Part shown: piece after piece, positions 1,304-54,921 of the stretch
How the letters are laid out: the number at the start of each line of letters is the position of its first letter
Numbering within the stretch: position 1 is the stretch's first letter
Assembly: GCA_964473525.1 (NCBI GenBank)
Contig: CAYYPK010000032.1
Location: forward strand, 353-64,352
Source: an uncultured bacterium
GTDB taxonomy: Bacteria > Poribacteria > WGA-4E > GCA-2687025
Direction of reading: 5' to 3'
Length of the DNA: 64,000 nt
Translations under genes and position numbers: made by a program
Notes under the pieces: generated by a model
What the model saw: only the letters and a program-made list of their open reading frames with translations
What the model was told of the DNA's origin: nothing
Database searches by the model: none

Positions 1304-2557
1304 CTACCGCGCGAGGAACTCCCGGAAGGCGCCCCCCAGCAGCGCTCGGACGTCGCGTTCCAGTTCGCCTTGGTGCAAGGACCACCCGGACGCGACGAGG
1401 TCACAGTACTTGTCGCCAAGGACGTTCGCGATCACCTGACGCGAGTGTGGCCACTTGTAGACGAGTTGGTCGAGGATGCGCGCGTCGGAGTGCTGCGGGA
1501 CCGTGCTGAGCCCGAGCAGCTCGATACGCTCGCGCGTGATCTCATCGATGATGCTGGGGTTGTTCATGAACCACCAGCACCCGAAGATGAGCAGGTTAGG
1601 GAACTTCCTCCCAACGACGCACAGCTCGTGCTGGTTCTCGCGCGAGAGTAGCGTCGCCAGGAACTTGCTGTCCGGATTGTCCTCGAGCATGCGCTCGAGG
1701 TTGGACATGTCCGCCTTCCCCATGCCGTCGCCCGCCATGCGCAACTGTGGGTTCACGGCGCGCTTGACACCGATCATCACGGCGAACGGGACGTTCCGCT
1801 CTCGCGAGACGGGCAGGACGCACTCCCGGATGATGGCCCCGCGCGCCGAGTCCTCCGGGTACGCGAACTCTGGCGGCAGGGACACCGCCATGTATTGCGG
1901 CCCCATCCGCGTGATCCAGTCGTCCAGGAACCGCCGGATTTCGGCTAGTCCCTTAGCTGAGAGACCGGCGTCCGCTTCGTAGCCGAGCGCGACGAGGGTT
2001 GGGCGTCCGGCGTCCTCATACGTGTTCAACAGCGGGTCGATGCGGAGCGCGGGTAGGAACCGCGGGTCGCCCGACCGCTCCGAGAGCCACACGGGCTGCT
2101 CGGCGAGGTCGAACGGGTCGTTCGTCATGACGGCGGATTCGACGTTCGCGAGTTCGAAGACGCGGTCGATGTGGTCCTCGACGCGCACGTCTCTAAGCGC
2201 GTCGCGGTAGCTGTTCAGGTCGCGCGTCGAGAGGTCGAATCCGTACGCCTGCAAGGTGGTGACGACGCCCCGACATGCCTCGCTCACGGGCGAGTTGTCG
2301 AGGAAGAGCGTCTGCCAGATGAGGTCCGCTTGCTCCGCCTGCGACATCGCCCAGTAGGCGTCGTACCCTATCGTGGACGAACGGAGCGTCTCGGCGATGA
2401 GGTAATGGTACGTAAGCAGTTCGTCGACGCCCCAGAGCAGCAGTTCGCCGAATTCCGGGCTAAACAGGTGCGTGTGGATGTCCATGACCGGCTGCGCTGC
2501 TACGGCAGCCGTCACGGCGTCCCGGACATCGGCCGCTTCGATGACGCGGTCTGGCAT
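1304..2557 (-). CDS. uxaC: Glucuronate (uronate) isomerase, divergent amidohydrolase-fold type
   Basis: DIHTHL, LLTYHYL, MTNDPFD, FGCWWFMNNPS and QHSDAR motifs; start at MPDRV after GAGGGG. Confidence 0.85.
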   Translation of the reverse strand: MPDRVIEAADVRDAVTAAVAAQPVMDIHTHLFSPEFGELLLWGVDELLTYHYLIAETLRSSTIGYDAYWAMSQAEQADLIWQTLFLDNSPVSEACRGVVTTLQAYGFDLSTRDLNSYRDALRDVRVEDHIDRVFELANVESAVMTNDPFDLAEQPVWLSERSGDPRFLPALRIDPLLNTYEDAGRPTLVALGYEADAGLSAKGLAEIRRFLDDWITRMGPQYMAVSLPPEFAYPEDSARGAIIRECVLPVSRERNVPFAVMIGVKRAVNPQLRMAGDGMGKADMSNLERMLEDNPDSKFLATLLSRENQHELCVVGRKFPNLLIFGCWWFMNNPSIIDEITRERIELLGLSTVPQHSDARILDQLVYKWPHSRQVIANVLGDKYCDLVASGWSLHQGELERDVRALLGGAFREFLAR

Positions 2558-2607
2558 CTTACCCCTCGCGCCGGGCTGGCCGGCGGTTTGTACGCGCGGG
2601 CGAGCTG

Positions 2608-3444
2608 TTAGCAGGTGACGTCCTTGCCCTCGTCCCCGTAAATCGCCAGGCGTCCCTCGCGGGTCAGGGTGACAATATCCTCGGGTCGGTAGTGCAGTTG
2701 GAGCGCGCGCCTGGGTAGGTCCGTGGTGTTCGGCGGCGTGCCATGGTGCACCAACCCGTGGAAGAACAGACAGCCTCCGGGCGCCAACGGCGCGACGACG
2801 TTGGCTTCCGTCGCGACGTCCGTGTCGCATATCTGCCAGTCACGACGCTGGAAATGCACGGTGGGGCCGTCGCGATGCGTGCCTGGAATCACGTGCATGC
2901 ACCCGTTGTCGTACGTGGCTTCGTCGAGCGCGATCCACGCGCCCACGACCGGTGTGTCCGGGTGGAAGTTGAAATACGCCGCGTCCTGGTGCCACGGCTT
3001 CTCTGACCCCACCCGCGGCGGCTTCGAAAGCGCCATGTCCTGGAACAGCATGGGCGGCTTCCCGATGAGACGCTCCAGCGCCGCGAGCATGCCCGCATGG
3101 TCGGCGATCGCCTTGAGCCGCTCGTCGTAGTCCACGAAGCTGAACACCTTGCGTACGAAGGCGCGCCGCTCCTCGACGGGCAGGTCGCCGACTGCGTCGC
3201 GCATGGCGGGCTCGTACTGCACGCCCCGAAACTCGCCGTCGGCTCCGTCCATCAGATATGTCAGCCCCTCGAGCGCGCTCGCGATCTCGGCGCTGCTGAA
3301 GGCGTCCTCGACGATGAGATAGCCGTCCGCGTGGAATCGTTCGGCCGCCGCGTCGTCCACGGCTGAGAAGCCGCCGGTGAGCCCGGACGCCGCCACTGAT
3401 CGGCGATACAGATCGGCGGTCGTGGTTGCCGGGGCATCGTGCAT
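2608..3444 (-). CDS. Phytanoyl-CoA dioxygenase (PhyH) family Fe(II)/2OG oxygenase, canonical HxD
   Basis: KPWHQD, WIALDEAT..NGCMHVIPGTH, distal HHGT...RRA. Confidence 0.92.
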   Translation of the reverse strand: MHDAPATTTADLYRRSVAASGLTGGFSAVDDAAAERFHADGYLIVEDAFSSAEIASALEGLTYLMDGADGEFRGVQYEPAMRDAVGDLPVEERRAFVRKVFSFVDYDERLKAIADHAGMLAALERLIGKPPMLFQDMALSKPPRVGSEKPWHQDAAYFNFHPDTPVVGAWIALDEATYDNGCMHVIPGTHRDGPTVHFQRRDWQICDTDVATEANVVAPLAPGGCLFFHGLVHHGTPPNTTDLPRRALQLHYRPEDIVTLTREGRLAIYGDEGKDVTC

Positions 3445-29778: not shown

Positions 29779-30663
29779 ATGGCCGACAACCAGCCCTGGA
29801 CGGCACGCCGCCTCATCGAGTGGACGGCGGAACACTTCGCGAAGAGCGGCATAGAATCGCCGCGCCTCGACGCGGAGGTGCTCCTTGGGCATGCCGTCGG
29901 CCAAGACCGCATGTGGCTCTATCTGCACCACGACGACGCCGTGGCGGCGGATGCTCTCGCGATCTACCGCGAATTGGTGAAGAAGCGCGCCGACCGCATT
30001 CCCGTCGCTTACCTGACTGGAGCGAAGGAGTTCTACGCGCTGCCGTTCCGCGTGACACCGGACGTGCTCATCCCGCGGCCGGACACGGAGGATCTGGTGA
30101 AAGCGGCGCTGTCTCGGCTCGTCGCGCCCGAGGACGGCTCGCCTCTACGGGTCGCCGACATCGGCACCGGCTCCGGCGCGATTGCCGTATCGCTGGCGAA
30201 GGAATGGGCGCCGCAGGCGATCGAGATTACCGCTGTCGATGTCTCGCGAGAGGCGCTTGCGGTCGCGCGCGAAAACGCCGCCGATCTCGAAGTCGAGGAG
30301 TGTATCTCGTTCGGTGAAAGCGACCTCTTCGACGGGATTGAGGCGGGCGTCCGTTTCCACGCCGTTGTGTCGAACCCTCCCTACATCCCTTCCGGCGATC
30401 TCAATGACCTCCAGGCGGAAGTCGCGCGGCACGAGCCGCGACTCGCCCTGGACGGTGGCGCGGACGGCCTGGATGTCATCCGTCGACTGGTCGCTCAAGC
30501 GCCGGACTTCATCGAGACACGCGGTTTCCTCGCTCTGGAGGTCGGCGTCGCGCAGGCGCGAGTCGTCGCGGCGCTCGTGGGGGAGACGGGCGCGTTCGGC
30601 GCCGTTGAGATCCTGCGTGACCTCGGCGACGTGGAGCGCGTTGTTCTCGCGCCACGTTCGTGA
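29779..30663 (+). CDS. prmC: Release factor glutamine methyltransferase
   Basis: VLIPRPDTE, DIGTGSG, SNPPY and EPRLALDGG. Confidence 0.96.
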   Translation: MADNQPWTARRLIEWTAEHFAKSGIESPRLDAEVLLGHAVGQDRMWLYLHHDDAVAADALAIYRELVKKRADRIPVAYLTGAKEFYALPFRVTPDVLIPRPDTEDLVKAALSRLVAPEDGSPLRVADIGTGSGAIAVSLAKEWAPQAIEITAVDVSREALAVARENAADLEVEECISFGESDLFDGIEAGVRFHAVVSNPPYIPSGDLNDLQAEVARHEPRLALDGGADGLDVIRRLVAQAPDFIETRGFLALEVGVAQARVVAALVGETGAFGAVEILRDLGDVERVVLAPRS

Positions 30664-30675
30664 CGCCCCGATCCA

Positions 30676-31482
30676 CTACGGCTTGCGATCCGTGTCCACG
30701 GTCGGCTCGTCGTTGCTGACGAACCGGTCGATGGTGTTGTGCGTCGCCGGGCCGGTGCGGAAATCCGCAACCCACGGCTCGCGGAAGTACGCCTGCTTCT
30801 CACGCGGTAGACCTTCCAGAACGACCGGCGGAATCGTAAGCCGATGCCAGTGAGTGGCGAGATGCGCGTAGGCGTGCAGCACGCCTATGCGCGGCGTGTC
30901 GCGCTTCCACACCGGGCCAGCGTGGCAGACGTTCTCCGTGAAGAAGATCGCGCTGCCCGCCGGGCAGTCGTACCCTGTCAGGAACTCGCTCCGCTCGCCG
31001 TCTTCGAGCGAGACGTGGGCGGGGTGCATGGCGTAGTTGGACTTGTGGCTACCTGGCAGGAACACCGTGGCGCCGTCGTCCTTCTTGACGTCCGTGAGCT
31101 CGAACACGACCCGCACCATGCCCGCGTGGATCCGCCCGTGGTTCACGCGATAGCCGAAGATGGGGTCCGCCTGCTGCGGCCCGCCACCGTGCAGTGGCCC
31201 GGCGTGCTGCCCCTTCTCGCGCCACACGGAGAACGCGTTCTCCAGCCGTATGTCCGGCCCGATGATCTCGTGCAGCACTTCGATGACCGCCGGATGGTCG
31301 ATGAGCAGGCTAGCCGGCCCGCCTGGGACCGACCGGTGCTCCGGCGGCAGTGACTGCGAGTCGTGCGTTATCCTGTCTATCTGCTCGACGATCGACGCGG
31401 TCTCGTCGGACGTGAGTATCGCGGGGCGCACGAGGAATCCGGTAAGGTCGAAGCGGAAGCGCTCCTCGTCTGTCATCGGCAT
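30676..31482 (-). CDS. PhyH-family Fe(II)/2OG enzyme, HxG variant (paralog 3)
   Basis: LHGGG, LPGSHKSN and FTENVCHAG..W..DTPR. Confidence 0.88.
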   Translation of the reverse strand: MPMTDEERFRFDLTGFLVRPAILTSDETASIVEQIDRITHDSQSLPPEHRSVPGGPASLLIDHPAVIEVLHEIIGPDIRLENAFSVWREKGQHAGPLHGGGPQQADPIFGYRVNHGRIHAGMVRVVFELTDVKKDDGATVFLPGSHKSNYAMHPAHVSLEDGERSEFLTGYDCPAGSAIFFTENVCHAGPVWKRDTPRIGVLHAYAHLATHWHRLTIPPVVLEGLPREKQAYFREPWVADFRTGPATHNTIDRFVSNDEPTVDTDRKP

Positions 31483-31553
31483 GTCTGGTTCTCCTTAGCC
31501 TGCTCCCGAACCGGCGGCGACTCTGGGCCATGTCGACTGCGACCGCGAACGCC

Positions 31554-32360
31554 TCACGGCCGGGTGTCCGTGTTCACCGGCGGCTCGTCATTCCCCACGA
31601 ACCGCTCGATCGTGTTGATGGTCGCGGGCTGCGTGCGGAAGTCGGCGACCCACGGCTCACGGAAGTACGCCTGTTTCTCACGCGGCAGGCCCCGCATGAC
31701 AGCCGGCGGCGTCTTGAGGCGATGCCAATGCGTGGCGATGTGCGCGTAGGCGTGCAGGACGGCTATGCGAGGCGTGTCTCGCTGCCACACGGGACCGGCG
31801 TGGCATAGGTTCTCCGTGAAGAAGATCGCGCTCCCCGCCGGACAGTCGTAGCTTGTCAGATACTCGCTGCGCTCGCCGTCCTCGAGGGACATGTGGTCCG
31901 GGTGCATCGGGAAGTTCGACTTGTGGCTGCCAGGTATGAAGTGCGTCGCGCCGTCGGTCTTCGCGACGTCCGTTAGCTCGAAGACGACGCGCACCATACC
32001 AGCGTGGATGCGGCCATTGCTGGCGCGATACCCGAATATGGGGTCGGCCTGCTGGGAGCCGCCGCCGTGCAAGCCACCGTGGCTTTGCCCCTTCTCACGC
32101 CACACGTGCGAGCTGTTCTCTAGCCGGATGTCAGGCCCGATGATCTCGTGCAGCACCTCCAGCGCCTTTGGGTGGTCGATCAGCAGGCTGGCGGGCCCGC
32201 CAGGTACGGCGCGATGCTCTGGCGGCAGCGACTCCGGGTCGTGGGCGATCCTGTCGATCTGCTCGACAATGGTCGCGGTTTCGCCGGGCGTGAGTATCGC
32301 CGGCCGCACGAGGAATCCCGTGAGGTCGAACCGAAACCGCTCTTCGTCCGTCATGGGCAT
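31554..32360 (-). CDS. PhyH-family Fe(II)/2OG enzyme, HxG variant (paralog 2)
   Basis: LHGGG, IPGSHKSN and FTENLCHAG; 268 aa like its neighbours. Confidence 0.88.
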   Translation of the reverse strand: MPMTDEERFRFDLTGFLVRPAILTPGETATIVEQIDRIAHDPESLPPEHRAVPGGPASLLIDHPKALEVLHEIIGPDIRLENSSHVWREKGQSHGGLHGGGSQQADPIFGYRASNGRIHAGMVRVVFELTDVAKTDGATHFIPGSHKSNFPMHPDHMSLEDGERSEYLTSYDCPAGSAIFFTENLCHAGPVWQRDTPRIAVLHAYAHIATHWHRLKTPPAVMRGLPREKQAYFREPWVADFRTQPATINTIERFVGNDEPPVNTDTRP

Positions 32361-32416
32361 GACGGTCTCCCTGTCCTGGGCTGGTGTCTGTGGACCGCTT
32401 CCTGCTATCTCTCTGG

Positions 32417-33223
32417 CTACGGCCGGCGATCCGTGTTCACCGGCGGCTCCTCGTTGTCAACGAAGCGGTCGATTGTGTTGATCGTGGCTGGGTTCGTGCG
32501 GAAGTCGGCGACCCACGGCTCGCGGAAGTATGCCTGCTTCTCCCGCGGCAGACCCGCCATCACCTCAGGCGGGAAAGGCAGACGGTGCCAGTGCGTGGCG
32601 AGATGAGCATAGGCGTTCAGGACGGCTATGCGTGGTGTGTCGCGCTGCCAGATCGGACCCGCGTGACACAGGTTCTCCGTAAAGAAAATCGCGGAACCCG
32701 CCGGACACTCGTAGCTCGTGAGAAACTCGCTACGCTCCCCGTCTTCCAACGACATGTGGTCGGGGTGCATTGGGAAGTTGGACTTGTGGCTGCCGGGTAT
32801 GAAGTGCGTCGCTCCATCGTCCTTGCCGATGTCCGTCAGCTCAAAGACGACGCGCACCATGCCCGCGTGGATCTGGCCGTTGTTCACGCGATATCCGAAG
32901 ATGGGGTCTGCCTGCCGAGGGCCGCCGCCATGGAGTTCCCCGTGCCGATCGCCCTTCTCACGCCAGGCGAAGAACGAGTGCTCCAGGCGTACGTCAGGGG
33001 CGATGATTTCGTGCAGCACCTCCAAGACCTTCGGATGGTCGATGAGCACGCTAGCCGGTCCCCCAGGCACGGCCCGGTGTTCAGGCGGGAGCGACTCCGG
33101 GTCACGGATGATCCTGTCCAACTGGTCGACGATGGCGGCTACCTCGTCCGCCGTCAGGATCGCGGGGCGTATGAGGTAGCCCGTCAGGTCGAATCGGAAA
33201 CGCTCCTCGTCGGTCATTGCCAT
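32417..33223 (-). CDS. PhyH-family Fe(II)/2OG enzyme, HxG variant (paralog 1)
   Basis: LHGGG, IPGSHKSN and FTENLCHAG; RBS GGAGAAGG. Confidence 0.88.
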   Translation of the reverse strand: MAMTDEERFRFDLTGYLIRPAILTADEVAAIVDQLDRIIRDPESLPPEHRAVPGGPASVLIDHPKVLEVLHEIIAPDVRLEHSFFAWREKGDRHGELHGGGPRQADPIFGYRVNNGQIHAGMVRVVFELTDIGKDDGATHFIPGSHKSNFPMHPDHMSLEDGERSEFLTSYECPAGSAIFFTENLCHAGPIWQRDTPRIAVLNAYAHLATHWHRLPFPPEVMAGLPREKQAYFREPWVADFRTNPATINTIDRFVDNEEPPVNTDRRP

Positions 33224-33327
33224 GCTGCCTTCTCCCTATCAGCGTGATAGTCTGACCGCGTCGCCTGCCTACGAGTTCACCACGACGACCGTGGCCAAGC
33301 AACCGCGCCGCAGGGGAGGCCTCTGAG

Positions 33328-34704
33328 ATGATCTATCGCCAACTGTTCCACAGGCTGGGAGTGGACCGAACGGTCGCGGTCGGCGTCATCGGGACCGGGC
33401 ACTATGCCACCGCCGTTGTCACCCAGTCGGCGCACATCCCTGAGCTGCGCGTGTCCGTCGTCTGTGATGTGGATGTTGAGGCGGCAAGAGGCGCGTTCGA
33501 GCGCGCGGGAACGCATGACTACGTGGTGTGCGGGTCGTCGGCGCAGGCGTTGCGCGCCATCGAAAGTGGCAGACCCGCGATCGTGCAGGACGCCGACCAC
33601 CTCATGTCTCTCCCCGTGGACGTGGTCGTTGAGTCGACCGGCATCGCTGAGGCCGCCGCGCAGCACGCTGCGGCGGCCATCGACGCCGGCAAGCACGTTG
33701 CCATGGTTAGCAAAGAGGCGGACGCGACCGTCGGCCCCATCCTGAAGCGGCGGGCCGACGATGCGGGGTTGATCTATTCCGCCGTGGACGGCGATCAGCA
33801 CGGCCTGCTCATTGGGCTCGTCCAGTGGGCGCGGGATCTGGGGCTAGAAGTGCTGTGCGGCGGAAAGGCGCTTGCCTCGGACCTGGTCTATGACGAGTCA
33901 GCCAACTCGATCTCCGTGGGAGGCAGGAGCCCCGTTGGCGTGGACGATCCGTCGCTGTTCGCGCCGCGTTCGCCCGTGGACGCGCCCGATCTGGTTGGGC
34001 CGCGGCGTCAGGCCCTCGGCGCTCGCGGGGCCATCCAGGGGTACGACATCACGGAGATGACAATCGCTGCCAATGCGACGGGGTTGACGCCCGACACGGA
34101 CACGCTGCGGTGTCCTCCGACGCGCATACCAGAGATCCCCGAAGTAATGTGCCCCGAGGAGATGGGAGGCATTCTCACCGACCGGGGGGTCGCGGATTGC
34201 GTGACCTGCTTGCGCGGCCCTCACGAGGCGGGTCTAGGAGGCGGGGTGTTCGCGGTCGTGAGCTGCGAGAACGACTACTCGCGCGACATGCTCATGTCTA
34301 AGGGGCTCATCTCGAACAGCAGCGACACTGCGGCGCTCGTCTACCGTCCCTATCACCTGTGTGGGGTCGAGACGCCCATGACACTGATGGTCATGGGACT
34401 GCTAGGCGCGTCGACGGCCGCTGTGGACTACTTGCCGAGATACGACATCGTGGCCCGTGCGCGAGAGGACATGCGCGCCGGCGAAGTGGTTGGGTCGGAT
34501 CACAGCCCGAAGCTGCGCGCGATCATGCAGCCAGCGCTCCCGGTGACGCCTGGCGACCCTATCCCTCTCCACATGGCGAGCGGGCGGCGCCTCGTGTGCG
34601 ACGTCTCCGCTGGCGCGCCGCTTCTCGTTGAGATGGTCGAAGAGCCTGCGGATTCCGCGCTGTGGTTCCTGCGGCGCGAACAGGACGCACGCCTCTTGCG
34701 CTGA
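33328..34704 (+). CDS. NAD(P)-dependent oxidoreductase with C-terminal SAF domain (homoserine dehydrogenase-like)
   Basis: GVIGTGHY Rossmann motif, VVESTG, KEADATVGP, GDQHG and YRPYHLCGVE; SAF tail. Confidence 0.85.
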   Translation: MIYRQLFHRLGVDRTVAVGVIGTGHYATAVVTQSAHIPELRVSVVCDVDVEAARGAFERAGTHDYVVCGSSAQALRAIESGRPAIVQDADHLMSLPVDVVVESTGIAEAAAQHAAAAIDAGKHVAMVSKEADATVGPILKRRADDAGLIYSAVDGDQHGLLIGLVQWARDLGLEVLCGGKALASDLVYDESANSISVGGRSPVGVDDPSLFAPRSPVDAPDLVGPRRQALGARGAIQGYDITEMTIAANATGLTPDTDTLRCPPTRIPEIPEVMCPEEMGGILTDRGVADCVTCLRGPHEAGLGGGVFAVVSCENDYSRDMLMSKGLISNSSDTAALVYRPYHLCGVETPMTLMVMGLLGASTAAVDYLPRYDIVARAREDMRAGEVVGSDHSPKLRAIMQPALPVTPGDPIPLHMASGRRLVCDVSAGAPLLVEMVEEPADSALWFLRREQDARLLR

Positions 34705-35310: not shown

Positions 35311-36423
35311 ATGTTGCGCAGTACCGATGGGTTGACGGACGTCGAACTCATCAAGCTATGCCGCGATGGTGACCACGGCGCGTTCAACGCGCTGGTGGGC
35401 AGGTACCAGCACCACGTCTACGGGCTCTGCAGCTACTTCGCTGGCGACTTCGCCGCGGCGCAGGATCTGGCGCAGGAGACTTTCGTCCGCGTGTACCTTG
35501 ATCTGCACGCGCTTCGAGAGGTGGGGAAGTTCCCCGCTTGGCTTGGTCAGGTGACAACCCGTGTGTGTCGGCGGACGACGCGACGTCAGGCGAAGCATCG
35601 ACACGACGATCTGGATGCTACGCCGGAGTCGTCGCTCGTCGACGAGGGAGCCCCGTCACCAGCGGAGGCGTCGGTGGAAAGCGAGACGCGAGCGCTCGTG
35701 GCGGCGCAGGTCGCGCGACTGCCGGAAGCTCAGCGCCTGGCGGTGACAATGCACTACATGGACGGTCTCTCGTACGCGGAAATCGCCGCGTTCCTGGATG
35801 TCCCGACGACGACGATAAAGAACCGCCTACACCGCGCGCGCGGACAGCTGAAGAGGGGCCTGACAACCATGGTCGATAGCAGTTCTGGCGCCGGTCGCCT
35901 GCCCGCTGGATTCGCCGACGAGATCCTCCACGAGGCCGCTGTCGAGCGGATCGTGTGGCATCAGGCGGATGACGACGACGGCACGCAGGGCATGCCGGTG
36001 TTGGCGCTTGCCCGCAAAGGCAAGCCCGAGCGCCTCCTCCCAATCTGGGTTGGCATCGCCGAGGCGGCCGCGATTTGGTCAGCGATGAACGGCGACCCTC
36101 CTCTGCGTCCGATGACGCACGACCTGTTGGCGAACGTACTGGGAGCCGCCAACGCCACCGTGCGGCGCGTGGTCGTCTCGGACCTTGATGACCGCGTATA
36201 CAAGGGCGTGCTGCTGATCGACTTCGACGGTGTGGTCAAGGAAATCGACTGCCGACCCAGCGACGCCATCGCCATCGCCGTTCGGACAAAGTCGCCCATC
36301 CTCGTCGCGGACAGACTCACCACGCGCGACGATGCCTGGGCGCCCGCTGAGGAATTCGCCGAAGCGCTCGACCTCATGGTCGTGCCTGCGCGAGCAGCCG
36401 GGGACAGCGGCGAGGGGGCGTAG
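35311..36423 (+). CDS. ECF sigma factor fused to a bifunctional nuclease (DUF151/BFN) domain
   Basis: Sigma2 (AQDLAQETFVRVY), sigma4 (GLSYAEIAAFL..TIKNRLHRAR), then LPIWVGIAEA, RPMTHDLL and IDCRPSDAIAIA. Confidence 0.92.
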   Translation: MLRSTDGLTDVELIKLCRDGDHGAFNALVGRYQHHVYGLCSYFAGDFAAAQDLAQETFVRVYLDLHALREVGKFPAWLGQVTTRVCRRTTRRQAKHRHDDLDATPESSLVDEGAPSPAEASVESETRALVAAQVARLPEAQRLAVTMHYMDGLSYAEIAAFLDVPTTTIKNRLHRARGQLKRGLTTMVDSSSGAGRLPAGFADEILHEAAVERIVWHQADDDDGTQGMPVLALARKGKPERLLPIWVGIAEAAAIWSAMNGDPPLRPMTHDLLANVLGAANATVRRVVVSDLDDRVYKGVLLIDFDGVVKEIDCRPSDAIAIAVRTKSPILVADRLTTRDDAWAPAEEFAEALDLMVVPARAAGDSGEGA

Positions 36424-40666: not shown

Positions 40667-42910
40667 TCAGGCCTGTCGAAGCAGCTCCGCGATGTCGGTG
40701 TGCCCCTTCTTCTCGGCTCGCGCGATGGGAGCGTTCCATGGCTTGTCGTCGGGATGCGTCACCGTGGCGCCACGCTCTAGCAGTACGCGGGTGCAGTCCA
40801 TGCTGCCGACGTGCGCGGCCCACGCTAGTGTCCTTGACTCCAGCTCCCAGTCGCGCGCCTCGATGTCGGCGCCATGGTCCAACGCCCACTCGACCATGTC
40901 CGGGCGGTCGCGCATGGTGGCGTAGTGCAGTGGCGGCTGACCGAACCAGTTGGGCCAGTTGATGTCCTCGCCGTTATCGATGAGGAACTCGGCGAGCTCG
41001 ACCCGCCGATGCGCGAGGCACTGCGCGAGCGCCGTTTGCCACGTCCGCACCATCTTGGGATCGAGTCGCGCGCCGTGGCGCATCATCAGCTTCACGATGG
41101 CGAGATGGCCCTGCTGAATGGCGTTGCCGTACAGATGGTCCTGAGCCTTCGAAGGGTCAGCAGCCAGAATCTCCGCGCACAGGTCGAGACGTCCTGCGTT
41201 GGCGGCGCTGGACAGACCGGCGACGGCGCCGTGCTCGTAGAGCAGACCGCGCAACTCCTCGTTAGTCGACGTGACCAGCGCGTAGCTGACGTCGCCGGAA
41301 GCGTGCCACCCCGCCTTGATGCTGGCGCCCGCCTCCAACAACATCCGCGCCAATGTGGCGTTCTCGTTCACGCGCGTGACCGCATAGAGGGCATACCCAC
41401 GGTCTGCGAAGTTGTCCTCGGGTAGGTTGGGATCCGCGCCCCGGTCCAGAAGCAGCCTCGCCATCTCTCCATGGCCTCGTTCCGCAGCGCAGGAGAGCGG
41501 GCGCACGCCGTTCGTATCGCGGAAGTTCACTAGGGACGCGTCCTCGTCCAGCAGGCGCGCCACCGTCGCGCGATCGTCACGCGCGGCGGCAACACAGATC
41601 GAGTGCTGCGCGCCCTTGCCTAGCAGATATCCGACCATCGCCCAGTTGTCTCGCATCTTGCGCCACTGGTTCTCCCACAGGGCGACGTGTATGGGTCTGA
41701 AGCCGTCGCCCCGGACGCCCTCGAGGTCGGCGCCCCGTTCGACGAGCAGTTCCACGAGGTCCATACGGTCCATGTCGGCCGCGACATGGAGCGGCTGCCG
41801 GCTTCCGATCTGGTCCGACACGATCTCGGCGACGTTGACGAGAGACGCGTCCTCGTCGAGTAGTTCGATGACGCGCCGGGCGTCGCCGGCCGCCACGGCC
41901 TGGCAGATGAGGGCGCCGCGCGTAGGAGCGCCTTGCGTGCGACTGTTAACAGCCGCCTCGAGTAGTCGCACGGTGTCCTCGTGTCCGCGGTCGCGCGCGG
42001 CTTCCAACGGGTTCTTGTACCCGTGCCACCAGACGTGCGACAGCGGGTCGGCGCCCGCGTCAAGGAGCAGCTCCACGATGTCGGCGCGCCCCATGCGGGC
42101 GGCGAAGTGTAGCGGCTGCCAGTACCCGATGTTCACAGTCAGAAGCTTGGGGTTGTCCGCGAGCATGTCCCGCACCGTGGCGGCGTCGCCATCGTTGGCC
42201 GCGGTAAGAATGCGCCACGTGTCTCCATCGAGCCCGGGCGGACGCGCCATTGCTTCGTCCACAAAGCGTCCATCACGAGACGGCCGGTTCGCTCTCACTT
42301 CGTCGGCGGACATCGCGGACATCCTCTCTTTGAGTTTGCGGCGCGCAGCCCGGAGCCGGTTGTCCACCGTGCTGGCGGGGAGCTCCAGGAACGTGGCGAT
42401 CTGCCGGTACGAGTATTCGTCCAAGTGGAACAGGACCAGCAGGATCCGGTCGGCTTCCGGCAGCGATCTCAACGACTGGCGGACGAGCAATGACTGTTGC
42501 TGTGCCTCGACAGCCGTCAACGCGTCCGGCTGAGGGGTAGCCGCATCGACAGCCGCTGCGATGGACACGGTCGGTACACCCCTACGGCGCAGGCGGCGAT
42601 GGCAGCGCGTTTGCACGATGCGGCGAAACCAGCCTGGGAACGCCTCGAGTTCGCGCAGATCCTCCAGGCGAACCCACGCGTCCATGAACGCCTCTTGGGC
42701 GGCGTCCTCGGCGTGCTGCGCGTCCTCTAGCAGCGCGAACGCGCAGCCGAACGCCATGTCCTGGAACCGCCGCACGATCTCCGAATACGCGGCGTCGCGT
42801 TCCTGACGTCGGGCCTTCGCCTGCTGCACGAGGCCGACGAGTTCGGCTGTCGTTGTGGTTGTCGCGTCCGGCATATGTGGCGCCCACGGGTCGGCGTGAT
42901 CGAGGAACAC
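40667..42910 (-). CDS. ECF sigma factor fused to an ankyrin-repeat domain (alternative start ATG 42874)
   Basis: AEDAAQEAF..AFPGWFRRIV and SYRQIATFL..TVDNRLRAAR, then roughly 13-14 ankyrin repeats (PLHFAARMG..IVELLLDAGAD etc.). Confidence 0.92.
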   Translation of the reverse strand: MFLDHADPWAPHMPDATTTTTAELVGLVQQAKARRQERDAAYSEIVRRFQDMAFGCAFALLEDAQHAEDAAQEAFMDAWVRLEDLRELEAFPGWFRRIVQTRCHRRLRRRGVPTVSIAAAVDAATPQPDALTAVEAQQQSLLVRQSLRSLPEADRILLVLFHLDEYSYRQIATFLELPASTVDNRLRAARRKLKERMSAMSADEVRANRPSRDGRFVDEAMARPPGLDGDTWRILTAANDGDAATVRDMLADNPKLLTVNIGYWQPLHFAARMGRADIVELLLDAGADPLSHVWWHGYKNPLEAARDRGHEDTVRLLEAAVNSRTQGAPTRGALICQAVAAGDARRVIELLDEDASLVNVAEIVSDQIGSRQPLHVAADMDRMDLVELLVERGADLEGVRGDGFRPIHVALWENQWRKMRDNWAMVGYLLGKGAQHSICVAAARDDRATVARLLDEDASLVNFRDTNGVRPLSCAAERGHGEMARLLLDRGADPNLPEDNFADRGYALYAVTRVNENATLARMLLEAGASIKAGWHASGDVSYALVTSTNEELRGLLYEHGAVAGLSSAANAGRLDLCAEILAADPSKAQDHLYGNAIQQGHLAIVKLMMRHGARLDPKMVRTWQTALAQCLAHRRVELAEFLIDNGEDINWPNWFGQPPLHYATMRDRPDMVEWALDHGADIEARDWELESRTLAWAAHVGSMDCTRVLLERGATVTHPDDKPWNAPIARAEKKGHTDIAELLRQA

Positions 42911-43306: not shown

Positions 43307-54917
<11,611 letters not shown>

Positions 54918-54921
<4 letters not shown>

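Follow-up and report, generated by a model that had tools for sequence, protein, structure and literature searches.

Three tandem genes on the minus strand of a 64,000-nucleotide stretch of contig CAYYPK010000032.1, from an uncultured poribacterium, encode Fe(II)/2-oxoglutarate (2OG) dependent enzymes of the PhyH superfamily. The whole stretch, with a GC content of 66%, is called the window below. All three proteins carry LHGG where canonical members have a His-x-Asp/Glu (HxD/E) iron-binding motif. In Fe/2OG halogenases no protein carboxylate is known to bind the iron, and WelO5 and BesD are Fe(II)/2OG halogenases with Gly at the HxD/E position. The locus thus raises the question whether the three genes encode halogenases, as an earlier sequence-only reading had proposed with a non-canonical subfamily as its other option. 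Our analysis leads us, with considerable confidence, to another answer: each gene would encode an Fe(II)/2OG oxygenase of a HygX-like branch, with a His98-Glu183-His187 triad and no free halide site. The subfamily option was thereby borne out, as HygX type, and the halogenase option is not supported; the paralogs are most likely ordinary oxygenases, because a Glu elsewhere in the chain very probably substitutes for the missing acid.

The three open reading frames (ORFs) of the array encode 268 amino acids each, are separated by spacers of 56 and 71 bp, and are 79-84% identical at the protein level and about 79% at the DNA level. All pass the gathering cut-off of the Pfam family PhyH (PF05721, 22 bits), though weakly, with 38.9, 41.1 and 48.6 bits, the last being the score of paralog 3. 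Translation of the ORFs confirmed the earlier observation of LHGG (L-H98-G-G100) in all three paralogs versus PWHQD in the canonical PhyH gene of the window. The motifs FFTEN(L/V)CHAGP(V/I)W(Q/K)RDTPR, VFELTD and QADP are also present in all three. The distal His and the 2OG-binding Arg, which had been described as kept, are found as His187 and Arg198 in every copy, the 2OG role of the latter being the probable one from family knowledge. In each paralog, Glu183 is situated four residues ahead of the distal His187 (T-E183-N-L/V-C-H187, an E-x3-H motif), a residue that the sequence-only reading had overlooked. LHGG in the three paralogs is one inherited feature and not three independent events; conservation across the family, and not the three-fold recurrence within the array, is the meaningful measure of it.

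For this purpose a family alignment (A3) of 78 sequences was used, comprising the three paralogs, 18 of 120 listed close homologs and 57 of 150 listed representatives. From the representatives, 67 of 230-320 aa were first selected and ten with truncated or garbled motif regions were dropped (P0132, P0140, P0153, P0186, P0203, P0218, P0220, P0221, P0226 and P0259). The profile alignment of A3 to solved enzymes placed H98-G-G100 on P-H-R-D of AndA and on L-H-G-G of HygX. A MAFFT alignment with the canonical PhyH of the window misplaces WHQD and was not used for the HxD equivalence. Within A3, at identities down to 26%, His is found at position 98 in 77/78 sequences and Gly at position 100 in 70/78, with Asp in one. 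Glu183 and His187 are present in 78/78 each and Arg198 in 77/78. The two carboxylates that the sequence-only reading had named as possible occupants of the ligand site, Glu128 of VFELTD and Asp106 of QADP, vary more (46/78 and 36/78, respectively). Another carboxylate does fall on the site by alignment, as had been considered, but it is Glu183 and neither of these two.

A search of the PDB with the single protein returned HygX (4xc9, 4xca, 4xcb and 4zpi) as the only clear match (E 3.4e-10), all other matches having E values of at least 0.014. With the A3 profile, HygX reached E 4.2e-31, followed by AndA as next best (2.7e-14), SyrB2 (3.6e-6) and CytC3 (4.3e-6). The alignment of A3 with HygX spans the C-terminal half, where L-L-N-E-A-L-M-H-G of HygX falls on F-F-T-E-N-L-C-H-A-G and G-D-R on D-T-P-R; Lys137 of HygX is aligned to Arg124 and Tyr141 to Glu128. 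AndA shows the reciprocal arrangement in the same profile alignment, with the proximal PHRD, a distal F-T-G-K-C-V-H and Gly aligned to Glu183. That the C-terminal half is equivalent to HygX becomes visible only with the family profile, and a phmmer search of the PDB with the C-terminal 109 residues alone gave a chance-level glutathione transferase match only.

The AlphaFold2 (AF2) model of paralog 3, built from the 78 sequences, had a predicted local distance difference test score (pLDDT) of 94.7 and a predicted template modelling score (pTM) of 0.92; a single-sequence model (pLDDT 34.5) was not used. Foldseek searches with the AF2 model placed HygX chains at the top, with E values from 1e-15 to 2e-14 and template modelling (TM) scores of 0.64-0.74, and SyrB2 at ranks 26 and 28. 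By VIA-align, HygX was matched with Z 24.4 and a root-mean-square deviation (rmsd) of 2.1 Å over 201 residues at 23% identity, and the second entry was FtmOx1 (Z 20.0, rmsd 3.9 Å); there was no halogenase among the best 50 VIA-align entries listed. The top matches of both methods are all PhyH-type 2OG oxygenases, so the predicted model has the PhyH-type double-stranded beta-helix fold. The three paralogs are further members of the known HygX-type variant within the PhyH superfamily. No description of a wider HygX-type family was found in the literature searched, supplements and the primary HygX paper lying outside it; the searches yielded the review and the paper of Kamke et al. 2014 cited below, together with a PHYHD1 paper that is unrelated.

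HygX from the hygromycin B biosynthesis of Streptomyces hygroscopicus (PDB 4XC9, 4XCA, 4XCB, 4ZPI) has in common with the paralogs the PhyH-type fold and the pattern H-x-G...E-x3-H...R. According to passages of a 2026 review (PMC13374393), the iron site of HygX is H-X-G...E-X3-H with the acidic residue of the triad relocated, Lys137 fills the gap left by the glycine, and the enzyme converts hygromycin C to hygromycin B in vitro by orthoester formation. The paralogs resemble HygX further in having a basic residue at the Lys137 position (Arg124), but differ from it in the Arg for Lys137 and the Glu for Tyr141. They also form a tandem triplet with no aminoglycoside or orthosomycin cluster around it, and orthoester formation is not implied. 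The canonical enzymes AndA, FtmOx1, SptF, EctD, human PhyH and the canonical PhyH gene of the window share with the paralogs the superfamily, the fold, the distal His and the Arg; they differ in that HxD/E is present and a non-acidic residue (Gly in AndA) occupies the position of Glu183.

On this basis each gene is predicted to encode a soluble protein of about 30 kDa, in which the iron would be bound by a complete 2-His-1-carboxylate triad of His98, Glu183 and His187. The carboxylate would have left the HxD/E position, which Gly100 occupies instead, and moved to a point four residues ahead of the distal His. From the alignment with HygX and the conservation within A3, Glu183 very probably replaces the missing acidic iron ligand, as in HygX. 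Arg198 would hold the C5 carboxylate of 2-oxoglutarate, a role known from the family, and Arg124 would take the place of HygX Lys137, the residue that fills the gap of the glycine. Following the rule of the family, 2-oxoglutarate would be decarboxylated, an Fe(IV)=O species would form and hydrogen would be abstracted from the substrate, after which hydroxylation or a HygX-like oxidative C-O ring closure may follow. For a halide no coordination site would be left vacant. As to the substrate, our guess is a polar, possibly sugar-derived small molecule, because HygX acts on an aminoglycoside and because of one conserved gene block in closely related Poribacteria genomes, which is described below.

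The arrangement of acidic residues could also be followed through the genome itself (7.46 Mb, 113 contigs), in which 112 ORFs with a length of 100 aa or more match the hidden Markov model (HMM) of A3 at E < 1e-5. By descriptive count, 44 of these have a proximal HxD/E. A non-acidic residue at +2 of the first His is combined with E-x3-H in 28 ORFs, with D-x3-H in five and with no acid at -4 of the distal His in 17, and 18 ORFs could not be placed. Many of the 17 ORFs with neither acid are canonical proteins misaligned by the HMM, several of them with PWHQ a few residues downstream, and the canonical PhyH gene of the window is one of this group. The swap of a non-acidic residue at +2 for an acid at -4 is thus found in 33/112 ORFs, and of the 44 HxD/E ORFs just two carry Asp or Glu four positions before the distal His. 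The acid is placed either two residues after the first His or four residues before the second, rarely in both places, and such a reciprocal pattern is to be expected of a relocated ligand. The column-based classes were kept, as re-classification by regular expressions gave false positives. One of these was H94-G-E96, which is found four residues ahead of H98 in paralog 3 alone (32936-32944, minus strand) and not in paralogs 1 and 2, and which is probably without meaning.

Free-standing Fe(II)/2OG halogenases, in which Gly100 would leave room on the iron for chloride or bromide in the manner of SyrB2, WelO5 and BesD, are considered very improbable. The HxG motif is truly located at the HxD/E position, and the glycine of HygX is itself called reminiscent of halogenases in the passages of the review (PMC13374393), but by the same source HygX is an oxidative cyclase and not a halogenase. 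SyrB2 and CytC3 are detectable as distant relatives, by profile E value and in the case of SyrB2 by Foldseek rank, and they resemble the paralogs in having a PhyH-related fold and, at the HxD/E position, a residue that is small (Ala or Gly); their similarity (E ~4e-6) is weaker, however, that of HygX being about 25 orders of magnitude stronger in the A3 profile search, and the paralogs differ from them by the invariant Glu183, which is aligned to the relocated acid of HygX and would complete the triad. The NCBIfam model of chlorinating enzymes (TIGR01762) gave no match in any paralog at E values up to 1. It had been stated earlier that no nonribosomal peptide synthetase (NRPS) or polyketide synthase (PKS) is encoded nearby, and this holds: no carrier protein, NRPS or PKS was detected near the array by Pfam among the 22 window ORFs scanned, including a 3329-aa ORF at 44932-54921. 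HxG in 2OG oxygenases is routinely read as a halogenase signature; that reading fails where a Glu stands four residues before the distal His, and a check for E-x3-H is advisable before halogenase calls are made in PhyH-family proteins.

An otherwise non-canonical site, with the carboxylate given by Glu128 of VFELTD or another residue, or with the two His as the only protein ligands, is improbable as well, though less so than a halogenase. Glu128 is invariant in 36 close homologs, is strictly coupled to Arg124 (44/44) and lies on the strand that bears the equivalent of HygX Lys137; across A3, on the other hand, it is replaced by Ala or another non-acidic residue in 32/78 sequences and Asp106 is missing in 42/78, while Glu183 never varies. 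HygX has Tyr at the position of Glu128, and in the genome studied nearly all ORFs with an acid four residues ahead of the distal His lack HxD/E. That the paralogs are catalytically dead, for example binding or regulatory remnants of the gene-family expansion, is conceivable in a genome with 112 PhyH-like ORFs, where redundancy and decay may occur, but we regard it as the least credible of these explanations. Every invariant residue of the family is kept in all three copies, dN/dS among them is 0.12-0.16, and orthologs of 72-90% identity are found in metagenome-assembled genomes (MAGs) labelled Latescibacteria, Poribacteria, Chloroflexota and Zixibacteria.

Several points weigh against the assignment as HygX-type oxygenases. 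The identity to HygX is only 21-23%, and the definition of the HygX motif was taken from passages of the review (PMC13374393). The ligation of iron by Glu183 is argued from the alignment to HygX and from conservation, and Glu128, invariant in the close family, could in principle join the site. Three of the sequences excluded from A3 (P0153, P0186 and P0221) retain the Glu, but Arg or Gln replaces the distal His. In the class counts of the genome, ORFs with low scores are unreliably aligned, the canonical PhyH of the window being one that is misaligned, and the ORFs are kin, so that the swap counts describe the pattern and do not test it. No particular substrate is supported by any result.

Among the members of the HygX-type branch, the residues at positions 124 and 128 distinguish a subgroup. 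Position 124 is Arg in 44/78 sequences of A3 and Val in 25/78, so a basic gap-filler is not family-wide. Arg124 is always accompanied by Glu128 (44/44), and a Val/Ala pair is found in 17 sequences. In the genome studied, 12 of the 33 HygX-type ORFs have the Arg/Glu pair and none has a lone Arg124 or Glu128. Sequences with the Arg/Glu pair form a subclade in which the active site, judged from these residues, would be unlike that of HygX.

Pairwise comparison of the three copies gave synonymous divergences (dS) of 0.84-1.0 at the low dN/dS ratios given above; the copies arose by duplication long ago, and purifying selection acts on all of them. A quick maximum-likelihood tree of 126 rows groups them in one clade of eight with an approximate likelihood ratio test support (SH-aLRT) of 97, in which each copy has a different database protein as its partner (P0002, P0005 and P0003). 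Because each pairs with a separate protein, the tree suggests that the triplication is older than the split from the close relatives. A match at E <= 1e-80 was present in 8/20 related genomes, as a single copy in each, one of these at a contig end. In the search for close homologs, 315 of 938 candidate proteins matched at E <= 0.001; the matches listed, 120 in number, are 72-90% identical, and the named ones come from MAGs with the four phylum labels mentioned before. In an exhaustive search of clusters at 50% identity, 1316 were matched at E <= 0.001, and the stricter limits of 1e-10 and 1e-30 left 505 and 73 of them. All matches in the ESM Atlas were PhyH clusters without a name. The best 80 genome loci are all from Poribacteria MAGs, with 80-86% identity and a mean GC content of 48%. 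Identities of 72-86% are held across genomes with local GC contents between 39% and 66% (loci L111-L116 and L031-L110 compared with the window), and such tight conservation is unusual for a PhyH-family enzyme.

PhyH is the most abundant domain family in Poribacteria, with more than 1.9% of the genes and mostly without known function, according to passages of Kamke et al. 2014 (PMC3909097). The genome studied has 112 such ORFs in its 7.46 Mb, and a HygX-type subgroup is not separated in those passages. The branch to which the paralogs belong is large, conserved and unstudied, and it is part of the PhyH expansion that is typical of sponge-associated bacteria. With a rather low expectation of being right, it may be proposed that the relocated-carboxylate site is the hallmark of a very large family, about a third of the PhyH proteins of the genome, and that the R124/E128 subclade, found in MAGs with four different phylum labels at 72-90% identity, could perform an oxidation other than hydroxylation, for example a C-O ring closure like that of HygX or an O-dealkylation, on a common sugar-like metabolite of marine or sponge origin. 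If this were true, the three diverged copies would cover related substrates, and the site would not be a one-off of an antibiotic enzyme.

Other HygX-type genes of the genome are clustered too. A second tandem triplet of 268-aa HygX-type genes is located at C5:132449-135098, with H-G-S...E-A-V/T-T-H and Val124/Gln128, and further tandem pairs are found at C17:50765-52458, C22:20572-22120, C49:30893-32490, C1:46779-48551 and C5:266361-268485. Another PhyH ORF is present within 5 kb of 18/33 HygX-type ORFs. Biochemical work could start from the tandem triplet of the window, the second triplet on C5 and the coupling of Arg124 with Glu128. Also counted in this genome were 67 sulfatase-like, 82 LamG3-like and 117 GFO/IDH/MocA-like ORFs, a repertoire that, together with PhyH, resembles the description of Poribacteria in the passages of PMC3909097.

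Table 1. Genes of the array, their neighbours and comparator, and the active-site motifs in the window.
Feature	Position	Strand	Basis or remark
Paralog 3, first gene of the array; HygX-type PhyH-superfamily Fe(II)/2OG oxygenase (probable)	32417..33223	-	ORF, Pfam, PDB, AF2, Foldseek/VIA
Paralog 2, 84% identity to paralog 3	31554..32360	-	ORF, Pfam, alignment
Paralog 1, last gene of the array, 79% identity to paralog 3	30676..31482	-	ORF, Pfam, alignment
H98-G99-G100, proximal His ligand with Gly replacing the canonical Asp/Glu, paralog 3	32924..32932	-	aligned to HygX LHGG and AndA PHRD
H98-G99-G100, paralog 2	32061-32069	-	
H98-G99-G100, paralog 1	31183-31191	-	
E183-N-L-C-H187, putative relocated carboxylate ligand and distal His ligand, paralog 3	32663..32677	-	aligned to HygX N-E-A-L-M-H
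E183...H187, paralog 2	31800-31814	-	
E183...H187, paralog 1	30922-30936	-	
R198, putative Arg binding the 2-oxoglutarate C5 carboxylate, paralog 3	32630..32632	-	aligned to Arg of HygX GDR and AndA KPR
R198, paralog 2	31767-31769	-	
R198, paralog 1	30889-30891	-	
R124...E128, Arg at the HygX Lys137 position, paralog 3	32840..32854	-	HygX alignment
R124...E128, paralog 2	31977-31991	-	
R124...E128, paralog 1	31099-31113	-	
Canonical PhyH comparator with PWHQD	2608..3444	-	Pfam PhyH 125.5 bits
prmC, convergent with the array	29779-30663	+	flank of the array on one side
NAD-binding DRL-like oxidoreductase, divergent neighbour	33328..34704	+	Pfam DRL_cat 5.4e-26, NAD_binding_3 8.5e-9

The neighbours of the array are prfA, prmC, the DRL-like oxidoreductase and a sigma factor fusion, and the gene context yields no consistent functional clue. 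A SAF domain of the DRL-like oxidoreductase remained below threshold (16.9 bits, cut-off 21 bits). This gene adjoins the array only in the same-genus genome G001 and not in six other relatives, among seven examined, and it is mentioned as context only. No orthosomycin or hygromycin-type cluster surrounds the array, and glycosyltransferase and aminoglycoside genes were absent among the ORFs scanned. No signal peptide was apparent from reading the paralog N-terminus, and a scan of 30500-33500 found no promoters or terminators.

Around the best Poribacteria loci, a co-directional block of crystallin/DUF1349, LamG3, GFO/IDH/MocA, UxuA-like TIM barrel, GNAT/FemAB and sulfatase genes, followed by the PhyH gene and after it a Phosphodiest-family gene, is found in 40/80, and another block, which contains ligA, HhH-GPD, TIM barrel and DUF1611 genes, in about 19/80, counts that are non-independent since the genomes are close kin. 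In the genome of the window, a sulfatase was located within 5 kb of 1/33 HygX-type ORFs, compared with 8.8% of random positions, LamG3 near 3/33 (random 10.8%) and GFO near 6/33 (random 16.5%), so that none of the three is enriched. A sulfatase or glycan link of the HygX-type genes in this genome was rejected for lack of enrichment within 5 kb of the 33 ORFs. A link between PhyH and sulfatases in symbionts was likewise not found in the literature searched, supplements lying outside it.

A few other ORFs of the window deserve mention. An ORF of 370 aa at 35311-36423 (plus strand) encodes an extracytoplasmic function (ECF) sigma factor fused to a bifunctional nuclease (BFN) domain, and this gene is found beside the DRL-like gene also in the same-genus genome. 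A second ECF-type sigma factor (Sigma70_r2, r4), of 747 aa at 40667-42910 (minus strand), is fused to a long ankyrin-repeat region. The 3329-aa ORF (plus strand) has a coding-like codon composition, with a GC content at third codon positions (GC3) of 0.82; it matched no Pfam family above threshold and PPC only below it. For the ORF at 1304-2830 (minus strand, 508 aa), the Pfam search gave nothing at E <= 0.001. The 5' part of this ORF shares 223 bases with the canonical PhyH gene; because of this overlap, its true start is probably internal.

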